Position numbers and translations under genes: made by a program. A DNA stretch of 29,986 bases from a virus. The notes beneath the pieces are model-generated. The model did no database searches, had not been told where the DNA came from, and saw only the letters and a program-made list of their open reading frames with translations. This document shows, piece after piece, positions 2,000 to 22,166 of this stretch (positions within the stretch are counted from its first letter, which is position 1; each line of letters starts with the position of its first letter). Where the stretch lies: UHGV virus genome UHGV-0038722. One strand, 5' to 3'.

Positions 2000-2066
2000 G
2001 TCGTTAATTCCTATGCGTGGTTTTACGATACCGAAGCCCTGACTGTTACCGCAGTTGGGGCTTCAA
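1997..2066 (+). ncRNA. Putative sar-like antisense RNA covering the ant start codon and RBS
   Basis: Plus-strand sigma70 promoter (-35 TTGATA 1965-1970, 17-bp spacer, -10 TATACT 1988-1993) firing antisense into ant start; hairpin 2033-2064 followed by U-rich stretch; architecture matches P22 sar (inference). Confidence 0.35.
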
Positions 2067-2266
2067 CTTTCTGCTCTATCAGTTATATCTTTCCCTTCAT
2101 ATACTTCACCTATATTGCTAATGCTGGCAGAACATCCAAGATGCTTGTATCTTATGATGTCCAACACGCAGTCACTACACAGCATCCGACCTGTTTCTTT
2201 AGAGTAAATGTATGTTTGATCAGCGTCTGATTCGCTAATGCCGCAGAAACAACATTCTTTACTCAT
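2063..2266 (-). CDS. Small cysteine-rich (zinc-ribbon-like) protein between arc and ant, unknown function
   Basis: 67-aa ORF with CCFCG...CSDC motifs; ATGA start/stop overlap with arc indicating translational coupling. Confidence 0.55.
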   Translation of the reverse strand: MSKECCFCGISESDADQTYIYSKETGRMLCSDCVLDIIRYKHLGCSASISNIGEVYEGKDITDRAES

Positions 2267-19498: not shown

Positions 19499-19971
19499 AC
19501 CTCAATCTCTCTGACCGTTCCGCCTGCTTCTTTGAATTTTGCAATCAGGCTGTCAGCCTTATGCTCGAACTGACCATAACCAGCGCCCGGCAGTGAAGCC
19601 CAGATATTGCTGCAACGGTCAATTGCCTGACGAATATCACCACGATCAATCATCGGCAAAGCGCCACGCTCCTTAATCTGCTGCAATGCCACAGCGTCCT
19701 GGCTTTTCGGAGAGAAGTCTTTCAGGCCAAGCTGCTTACGGTAGGCATCCCACCAACGGGAAAGAAGCTGGTAGCGTCCGGCGGCTGTTGATTTGAGTTT
19801 GGGGTTTAGCGTGACAAGTTTGCGAGGGTGATCGGAGTAATCAGTGAATAGCTCTCCGCCAACAATGACGTCATAACCATGATTTCTGGTTTTCTGACGT
19901 CCGTTATCAGTTCCCTCTGACCACGCCAGCATATCGAGGAACGCCTTACGTTGATTATTGATTTCCACCAT
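19495..19971 (-). CDS. R: Endolysin R (lytic transglycosylase), lambda R-like
   Basis: 158-aa ORF essentially identical to lambda R from memory ([51 protein letters not shown]...). Confidence 0.95.
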
Positions 19972-20278
19972 CTTCTACTCCGGCTTTTTTAGCAGCGAAG
20001 CGTTTGATAAGCGAACCAATCGAGTCAGTACCGATGTAGCCGATGAACACGCTCGTTATATAAGCGAGATTGCTACTTAGTCCGGCGAAGTCGAGAAGGT
20101 CACGAATGAACCAGGCGATAATGGCGCACATCGTTGCGTCGATTACTGTTTTTGTAAACGCACCGCCATTATATCTGCCGCGAAGGTACGCCATTGCAAA
20201 CGCAAGGATTGCCCCGATGCCTTGTTCCTTTGCCGCGAGAATGGCGGCTAACAGGTCATGTTTTTCTGGCATCTTCAT
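19955..20278 (-). CDS. S: Holin S (lambda S107/S105 dual-start class I holin)
   Basis: 107-aa [42 protein letters not shown]... identical in pattern to lambda S; Met1-Lys2-Met3 dual start. Confidence 0.95.
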
Positions 20279-20402
20279 GTCTTACCCCCAATAAGGGGAT
20301 TTGCTCTATTTAATTAGGAATAAGGTCGATTACTGATAGAACAAATCCAGGCTACTGTGTTTAGTAATCAGATTTGTTCGTGACCGATATGCACGGGCAA
20401 AA

Positions 20403-20432
20403 CGGCATGAGGTTGTTAGCGCAACCTCATGC
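20403..20432 (-). other. Stable RNA hairpin in the late leader upstream of S
   Basis: Perfect 11-bp inverted repeat ggcatgaggtt / aacctcatgcc with 8-nt loop; followed on minus strand by GUUUUGCCC. Confidence 0.6.
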
Positions 20433-20569
20433 CACCCGCTTTCACGAAGCCAGCCATTGCGCTGGTTTTCTTTTATGCAAAGCACACCGCACCGTAGCCA
20501 CAGCGGATAAGGTGATTATTTTTGTCTGTCTGGTATTTGGTTTGATGTGCTTTCAGAAAGGCCGTGCTT

Positions 20570-20606
20570 AAAACGCAAAAAGCCCCGAGCTATTAACTCA
20601 GGGCTT
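20570..20606 (-). terminator. tR'-like rho-independent terminator of the short pR' transcript
   Basis: Minus-strand hairpin agcccugag-uuaaua-gcucggggcu followed by UUUUUGCGUUUU. Confidence 0.8.
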
Positions 20607-20632
20607 TATTTAACGAGTGCATTTATCCATCG

Positions 20633-20669
20633 TTGAGTCAAATTTACCCAACTTTATTCAAAAAGTCAA
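20633..20669 (-). promoter_or_regulatory. Late promoter pR' with qut region
   Basis: Minus strand -35 TTGACT (20664-20669), 17-bp spacer, -10 TAAATT (20641-20646), then ACGATGG initial transcribed sequence as in lambda pR' (from memory); directly downstream of Q. Confidence 0.75.
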
Positions 20670-20711
20670 TATCATGCCGTTAATATGTTGCCATCCGTGG
20701 CAATCATGCTG

Positions 20712-21335
20712 CTAACGTGTGACCGCATTCAAGATATTGTCTGCGATTGACTCTTCCTTGTGGCATTGCACCACCAGAGCGTCATACAGCGGCTTAACAG
20801 TGCGTGACCAGGTGGGTTGAGTAAGGTTTGGGATTAGCATCGTTACAGCGCGATATGCGGCGCTTGCTGGCATCCTTGAATAGCCGACACCTTTGCATCT
20901 TCCGCACTCTTTCTCAACAACTCTCCCCCACTGCTCTGTTTTTGCTATATCAACCGCGCGGCCTGTACCGTGGCAATCTCTGCATCTTGCCCCCGGCGTC
21001 GCGGCACTACGGCAATAATCCGCATAAGCGAATGTTGCGAGCACTTGCAGTACCTTTGCCTTAGTATTTCCTTCGAGCTTTGCCACACCACGGTATTTCC
21101 CCGATACCTTGTGTGCATATTGCATCAGATAGTTGATAGCCTTTTGTTTGTCGTTCTGGCTGAGTTCATGCTTACCGCAGAATGCAGCCATTCCGAATCC
21201 GGCTTGTGATTGCGCCATCCCCATAGCAGCCATCACATCAGTACCGGAAAGAGAGTCAGAAGCCGTGGCCCGTGGTGAGTCGCTCATCATCGGGCTTTTT
21301 GGCGAATGAAATTTAGCTACGCTTTCGAGTCTCAT
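20712..21335 (-). CDS. Q: Late antiterminator Q (lambda Q type)
   Basis: 207-aa ORF MRLESVAKFHSPKSPMMSDSPRATASDSLSG... matches lambda Q nearly residue for residue from memory. Confidence 0.95.
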   Translation of the reverse strand: MRLESVAKFHSPKSPMMSDSPRATASDSLSGTDVMAAMGMAQSQAGFGMAAFCGKHELSQNDKQKAINYLMQYAHKVSGKYRGVAKLEGNTKAKVLQVLATFAYADYCRSAATPGARCRDCHGTGRAVDIAKTEQWGRVVEKECGRCKGVGYSRMPASAAYRAVTMLIPNLTQPTWSRTVKPLYDALVVQCHKEESIADNILNAVTR

Positions 21336-21520
21336 CGTCTTCCCCTCTTGCCCTGTTTGACCATCAGGACGCCGTTAACTATTACGTGACGCTCGCCTTT
21401 GCTGTCTCGGTTGTACTTGAGCACTGTTCCTCTTGCGCAGGAAAGCATCCTCGCCACTTCGGTCTGATTTCCTCGTGTCTGGATAAGCAGTTCTGGTATC
21501 GTTTGAATTGTGGCGTTCAT
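21332..21520 (-). CDS. ninH: NinH-like protein
   Basis: 62-aa ORF; IPELLIQTRGNQTEVARMLSCARGTVLKY resembles lambda NinH; immediately upstream of Q. Confidence 0.7.
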   Translation of the reverse strand: MNATIQTIPELLIQTRGNQTEVARMLSCARGTVLKYNRDSKGERHVIVNGVLMVKQGKRGRR

Positions 21521-21879
21521 ACGCTCTCCAGTTCGGTGATTTTTATTCCAAGCCGTCCGCCTGGTACTTTCACACCACGAATTACGCGAATGTCATCGAA
21601 TTGCTCGTCGTCTTCCGCAAATCCGGCGTGGATAAGGGAGTCGAGTAAACCTTTCAGGATATTGTCGAGGTCTCGGCGGCGGGAGTCTGGAACGTCTGCG
21701 ATGACTTTGATGCGGAGTCGTGATTTGGTGAAAATGTCTAACTTAAGTTGGCGGATGATTTGCTGAACGTCTTTTCGGTATTTCTGGCCTTTATCGCTGA
21801 TGTAGTATTGGCTTCCCCGTCTTCGCCAGTAGGTGTTCACCGACGGCGGGTATGGAAGCACAAACTGATATTCGTTCAT
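21517..21879 (-). CDS. rusA: Holliday junction resolvase RusA
   Basis: 120-aa ORF; motifs LPYPPSVNTYW, PDSRRRDLDNILKGLLDSL, GGRLGIKITE match RusA family. Confidence 0.9.
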   Translation of the reverse strand: MNEYQFVLPYPPSVNTYWRRRGSQYYISDKGQKYRKDVQQIIRQLKLDIFTKSRLRIKVIADVPDSRRRDLDNILKGLLDSLIHAGFAEDDEQFDDIRVIRGVKVPGGRLGIKITELESV

Positions 21880-22166
21880 GACTTAATCTTCCCCTCCTTC
21901 AGCAGTATCGCCTGCGTCCTGATCACGCCTTCGAGGTGGTAAAGTCTGGCGTCTTTGTTGTCGAGATTATGGGTGCGTCGGTCGATTTCATCGTGACACG
22001 CACTACAAGCCCATGCACCGATCAGGTCGTCAGGCTTCATTCCCGTTCCGCAAATTCCAGCCATCCGGTAATGTGCCAGAACTGTAGTTTCAGGGTTGCC
22101 ATTGCATACGCCGTAAATACGTACCTGGCATTCTCTGCCGCGCGCTTCTTTGCGTAGGTTAGCCAT
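21876..22166 (-). CDS. ybcO: YbcO-like (DUF1364) putative nuclease
   Basis: 96-aa ORF; ARGRECQVRIYGVCNGNPETTVLAH...CSACHDEIDRRTH matches DLP12 YbcO from memory. Confidence 0.8.
   Translation of the reverse strand: MANLRKEARGRECQVRIYGVCNGNPETTVLAHYRMAGICGTGMKPDDLIGAWACSACHDEIDRRTHNLDNKDARLYHLEGVIRTQAILLKEGKIKS

Follow-up and report, generated by a model that had tools for sequence, protein, structure and literature searches.

The 29,986-nt virus sequence analysed here (the window) very probably carries a late-gene control module of the form known from P22, HK022 and HK97, with a short leader controlled by Q. As a whole, the window is a P22-like podophage of E. coli, of the same kind as HK620, CUS-3 and Huey. 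Judged by sequence, its short late leader is the P22/HK022/HK97-type late control region, which is already known, annotated and widespread, and the short-leader arrangement is no peculiarity of this genome. An upstream Q of the lambda family, a promoter with a spacer element, AACGAT together with TTGACT, and a terminator before S were all found, as in a lambda-type Q module. The features are as follows.

20712..21335, minus strand: gene Q, whose 207-aa product is a late-gene antiterminator of the lambda type, with 205/207 residues as in lambda Q
20641..20669, minus strand: promoter pR' (P late), with -35 TTGACT (20669-20664), a 17-nt spacer and -10 TAAATT (20646-20641)
20643..20663, minus strand: predicted Q-binding element (upstream part of qut), TTTTGAATAAAGTTGGGTAAA, 19/21 bases identical to lambda TATTGAATAAAATTGGGTAAA
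20636..20641, minus strand: -35-like TTGACT directly before the pause element, with the same sequence in lambda
20629..20634, minus strand: predicted transcription start (+1 = 20634) and AACGAT pause element (+1 to +6), identical in lambda
20618..20621, minus strand: predicted pause site, +14 to +17, TGCA (TTCG in lambda)
20577..20607, minus strand: predicted intrinsic terminator tR' (t late), +28 to +58, AAAGCCCUGAG UUAAUA GCUCGGGGCUUU followed by a U-run
20398..20433, minus strand: second strong hairpin, +202 to +237, with a 12-bp core and then GUUUUG, common with lambda
19955..20278, minus strand: holin gene S, the first late gene (ORF list, Pfam PF05106)

Late promoter, start and pause region

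The product of gene Q matches Pfam PF03589 (Antiterm) with an E value of 6.8e-58. A sequence-only reading of this DNA had taken it to be identical to lambda Q; it is indeed lambda-type, but at 99% the identity is not exact. The -35 of pR' starts 43 bases past the Q stop codon. Using a consensus scan of 19500-22000, TTGACT-17-TAAATT was the sole sigma70-type site, with 2.7 such sites expected by chance. Since a single consensus site against 2.7 expected is no more than chance, we identify pR' by homology. In the alignment, its 29 bases equal lambda pR' save for 2 spacer positions, and they match base for base the 'P late or P R'' annotated in P22 (37852-37880 in BK000583, NC_002371, where qut is also annotated). 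Both hexamers and the start sequence, as the sequence-only reading had placed them, were recovered by scan and alignment on the minus strand. The start was assigned by homology with lambda and P22 to the first A of AACGATGG at 20634; the annotated 5' nucleotide of the P22 late RNA (37887) maps onto this A.

The Q-binding element was recognised with the lambda 21-mer as quoted in the GenBank annotations of mEp and HK phages. The variant present in the window is the commonest in IMG/VR, among the matches listed, and is found with both leader types. With 19 of its 21 bases retained and AACGAT unchanged from lambda, the Q-binding and pause region is kept, as had been proposed. The -35-like TTGACT presumably has a role in Q-engaged pausing, as in lambda.

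A -10-like element can act as a sigma70-dependent pause signal by a mechanism that has been described (PMC5001585, PMC9191641). The pause consensus is T+14 N Y+16 G+17, which lambda pR' matches perfectly (PMC9191641). In the window T+14 and Y+16 are kept and G+17 is changed to A, a variant seen in all short-type leaders examined, including that of P22. At lambda pR', the consensus G+17 lends stability to the paused, scrunched complex (PMC9191641); the change to A suggests that pausing here may be weaker, shorter-lived or placed differently. Combined with a terminator 11 nt past the pause, A+17 might set a Q-loading window that is kinetically distinct from that of lambda.

By analogy with lambda and P22, we infer where transcription starts and pauses, that the promoter is constitutively active, that transcripts end at tR' and that Q brings about antitermination. 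Host RNA polymerase with sigma70 would initiate at pR' on the minus strand, at 20634. Sigma70 would then re-bind AACGAT (+1 to +6), and the complex would pause near +16/+17 by scrunching (PMC5001585, PMC9191641). Without Q, the polymerase would leave the pause, transcribe the tR' hairpin and release a leader of about 58-62 nt, and the downstream lysis and virion genes would stay silent. Q, made from the early right operon, would bind between -35 and -10 and join the paused complex. The Q-loaded complex would resist tR' and later terminators, so that S, R, Rz and the morphogenetic and virion genes would be transcribed.

A small 5' hairpin is possible in +1 to +23 (20611-20634, minus strand; AACGAUG/C-CUCGUU), with a fold of -4.3 kcal/mol computed on the equivalent Sf101 segment, which is identical save for the base at -1. 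Five substitutions separate the lambda and P22 types in this region: three fall in the hairpin loop, one in the stem and one (+24) just 3' of the hairpin. The stem substitution (+17, G to A) still pairs with U6, and lambda homology stops exactly at the 3' edge of the hairpin. These data comprise two sequence types only, and the G4-C20 pair is broken in a few variants, so that they argue only weakly for the structure.

Terminator tR' and the interval before S

The terminator scan found a hairpin at 20607-20579 (+28 to +56) with 13 pairs, 6 of them G-C, and a loop of 3, which agrees with the earlier proposal that tR' begins about 30 nt after the start. As DNA it reads AAAGCCCTGAG TTAATA GCTCGGGGCTTT, then TTTTTGCGTTTT. 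The U-run consists of five U at +54 to +58 (20581-20577), followed by GCG and then UUUU. The hairpin alone has a folding energy of -18.7 kcal/mol (z -4.9, with 0 of 200 shuffles as good); for the 65-nt leader the value is -23.3 kcal/mol (z -4.6). Its stem is unchanged in 34-38 of the 38 distinct variants. From the positions of hairpin and U-run, the predicted terminated RNA is about 58-62 nt long, in keeping with the roughly 60 nt proposed before, and an RNA of this size would be produced constitutively. The P22 counterpart is annotated 't late or t R'; antiterminated by gene 23 protein action' (37917-37945 in BK000583) and labelled 'terminator tR'; terminator tQ' in X78401. The record of Salmonella phage Emek annotates the tR' hairpin as a rho-independent terminator.

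The record of HK620 labels the same hairpin 'qut' and puts 'tQ' about 600 bp further down, which, set beside the P22 and Emek records, suggests that annotators disagreed on which hairpin is the Q-sensitive terminator. One could therefore suppose that tR' is a weak or partial stop, and that the second hairpin (+202 to +237) keeps the late genes off and yields a leader of about 235 nt, near the lambda length. The short U-run of tR' would fit this, as would the second hairpin itself, which lies inside a lambda-homologous block, is conserved with lambda and is stronger (-32.2 kcal/mol, z -4.5; 20404-20433). However, only four U follow the second hairpin, the terminator scan made no call there, and one mid-stem pair (+206/+227) is hypervariable and mismatched in most of the 38 variants (AC 13, GA 9, TC 7, GC 4, AA 3, TA 2), the other stem positions being nearly invariant. 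The first hairpin, in contrast, is a nearly invariant, textbook intrinsic terminator, and it is the one annotated as tR' or as a terminator in P22 and Emek. We consider control by the second hairpin very unlikely, and tandem terminators would be consistent with termination at tR'. The second hairpin may serve as a reserve terminator or as a structure for RNA processing.

In Sf101 (locus 657-679, corresponding to 20582-20604 of the window), the hairpin core of tR' has the usual sequence in exact reverse complement. In the late-sense RNA this turns two U-G wobbles into C-A mismatches, and the fold falls from -18.7 to -12.6 kcal/mol. It is the sole such case among the 56 tR' copies in the loci examined. 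The 30-nt hairpin AAGCCCTGAGTTAATAGCTCGGGGCTTTTT also occurs in the otherwise unrelated Hafnia phage Meifeng and Pantoea phage AH01. In Meifeng (locus 1200-1231) it has a Q-sized gene on one side and tRNAs with a holin on the other; in AH01 (locus 1201-1230) it is placed after the endolysin. The hairpin of these two phages looks like a portable terminator cassette.

A further reading takes the hairpin as a portable, orientation-independent terminator that stops antisense (plus-strand) RNA before it reaches Q, its place after pR' being incidental. Its presence in the unrelated Hafnia and Pantoea phages, the inverted copy in Sf101 and the TTTATTT that follows the hairpin on the plus strand agree with this. 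Against it, the consensus scan found no plus-strand promoter-like site in 19500-22000, and no intact plus-strand gene ends at the hairpin, the ORF that does so being broken in 16 of 38 variants. Moreover, among the loci examined, 55 of 56 copies at this position have the late-sense terminating orientation, and in the Hafnia phage the hairpin again lies between a Q-sized gene and a holin. An antisense terminator is thus highly improbable, and we retain tR' as the predicted terminator of late-sense transcription from pR'.

Between tR' and S, a terminator-like hairpin with a T-run at 20446-20469 (plus strand) faces against late transcription. It sits just upstream of the lambda-homologous S leader, and HK620 keeps a diverged copy in the same place (HK620 locus 854-880). 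No plus-strand promoter or intact gene that this hairpin might serve was found.

Two ORFs were considered and rejected as explanations of the region. The antisense 65-aa ORF at 20374-20571 (plus strand; hypothetical protein Sf101_0056 in other records) is disrupted in 16 of 38 variants and is therefore not a gene. The sense 51-aa ORF at 20330-20485 (minus strand; hypothetical protein HK140_065 elsewhere) lies mostly in a near-invariant block, so that its intactness is uninformative.

P22, lambda and the two leader types

From promoter through terminator, the late region of P22 aligns base for base with the window, at 96.6% identity over 118 nt, and HK544 is an exact match (100% over 121 nt). 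The P22 tR' hairpin has an equal energy of -18.7 kcal/mol. Its loop is UUUAACC compared with UUAAUA here, one base shorter in the window, and there are a few point differences. The downstream lysis genes differ, being lambda-type S/R/Rz here and 13/19 in P22. Lambda Q and P22 gp23 are said to be interchangeable (PMC8022706). For phages 21, phi80, 82 and P22, PMC7547250 cites work of 1975-1991 on short RNAs that arise at the late promoters and are regulated by antitermination. Citations of a short late-promoter RNA in P22 go back to 1976.

The lambda module shares with the window a 99% identical Q, both hexamers, the -35-like TTGACT, AACGAT and about 190 bp before S. Phages 82 and 21 are not known to share related Q proteins, binding sites or sequences with lambda. 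In both phages, too, the polymerase makes a sigma70-dependent pause close to the promoter and then meets an intrinsic terminator, which Q overrides; the pause of phage 82 is at +25, another position than here (PMC5001585).

Aligning the window with lambda (start at 44587) showed homology through Q and pR', with identity in the pR' elements and +1 to +8 save for the 2 pR' spacer bases. Five substitutions follow in +9 to +24, among them G in lambda for A here at +17. After +24 homology is lost, and it returns about 190 bp upstream of S. The start codon of S lies at +357 here versus +600 in lambda. The lambda leader (6S RNA, 194 nt) is unrelated to that of the window past +24, and its tR' U-run is found at +188 to +193, compared with a terminator at +28 to +58 here. 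The U-run position agrees with the length of about 194 nt given in the sequence-only reading, and the leader lengths differ in the alignment as claimed there. The leader does not belong to the lambda 6S RNA, as similarity is absent after +24 and the terminator is not near +190. Past +24, the only difference between the modules is a bare terminator here versus 170 extra bases in lambda.

The short leader could also have arisen from the lambda leader by a recent deletion, in this genome alone, as its identity with lambda to +8 and similarity to +24 might suggest. The unmatched segments (142 bp in the window, 385 bp in lambda) share nothing, with a best local match of 10 nt (E 0.064), so the leader was replaced rather than trimmed or deleted. 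Of the earlier wording, by which the rest of the lambda leader was deleted or replaced, absence and replacement are borne out, and deletion is not. In addition, P22, HK022 and HK97 have the short form, which 83 phage records carry, and the substitutions in +9 to +24 are fixed between the types. Dissimilar segments, wide distribution and fixed substitutions together refute a private deletion, to which we assign next to no probability.

Over at least 80% of its length, the 511-bp interval from Q to S has matches of 95-99% identity in 81 phage records, including HK544, HK106, mEp234, HK140, HK022, HK97, Sf101 and Emek. For the 121-bp pR'-tR' core there are 98 matching records, of which 83 match nearly in full, at 96-100% identity. 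With at least 80% of the query covered, 83 phage records carry the short leader versus 30 with the lambda type, the latter being mostly lambda and its laboratory derivatives. Complete E. coli genomes (n = 5,426) gave 333 short leaders versus 413 of the lambda type. Among 120 listed IMG/VR contigs with the pR'/pause word, at least 64 are short and at least 54 lambda-type; the remaining two are too short to classify, and no third leader type occurs among these 120 matches. The short leader is at least as common as the long leader of lambda, although the complete E. coli genomes stand at 333 versus 413. A contig collection with one genome per species gave only 2 loci and is uninformative on range.

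The five differences in +9 to +24 are fixed between the short and lambda types among the IMG/VR matches listed, and the same Q-binding-spacer variants accompany either leader. Together with the varied sequences on the 3' side, this suggests that the two leaders are alternative cassettes behind one Q/qut module. The 194-nt 6S leader of lambda and the short leader would then be exchangeable for one another at this place. The minimal form amounts to a terminator 11 nt after the predicted pause site, and makes a convenient natural minimal template for Q studies.

A mosaic joint lies directly 3' of the tR' T-run (20565-20577, minus strand, and equivalents in IMG/VR loci). At least five unrelated sequences were found beyond the T-run of the short terminator, a few of them being lambda's own post-tR' sequence CTGCACAACAGGTAAGAGCAT; from this variety, the short leader appears to end at a mosaic joint.

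This pR' leader of enterobacterial phages is also carried exactly (locus 2895-2929) by JAEZIN010000021.1, a 10.4-kb contig of a metagenome-assembled genome named 'Bacillota bacterium', which is probably a mis-binned contig.

Possible role of the leader RNA

We know of no function of the leader RNA beyond that of a by-product of antitermination control. In Shiga-toxin phages, termination at tR' gives StxS, a 74-nt regulatory RNA for which Hfq binding and target regulation have been shown (PMC7547250). The likeness to the window is one of principle: a constitutive late promoter and a terminator close behind it, with a short RNA as by-product in lysogens. The window's leader of about 60 nt might, in the same manner as StxS, act in trans on host transcripts in lysogens, which we regard as unlikely. 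Such a role would explain why the first 65 nt hardly vary among dozens of phages that are mosaic elsewhere. If the short RNA did have a host target, hundreds of E. coli and Salmonella lysogens would be affected.

Searching the whole window with Rfam at gathering thresholds returned no leader family, and a permissive search of 20200-20800 returned sub-threshold chance matches only. The longest complementarity of the leader to the phage's own transcripts is 12 nt, to other terminator stems, which is at chance level. No paper turned up when full texts were searched for the sequence strings of hairpin and leader. With no Rfam family, no phage target and no literature match, a StxS-like role is unsupported, and beyond correct annotation the finding matters little.

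The transcriptome of the BTP1 prophage (PMC7067206) was considered as a parallel and set aside, as its late operon comes directly after two tRNA genes, unlike here; none of its nine ncRNAs could be linked to the short leader. The P22 pid paper makes no mention of a late leader.

The only Rfam match in the window at gathering thresholds is the sar RNA at 2001-2068 (plus strand), a full-length match to RF00262 with 85.7 bits against a gathering score of 43. This match indicates that the window carries the P22-type immI (ant) region.
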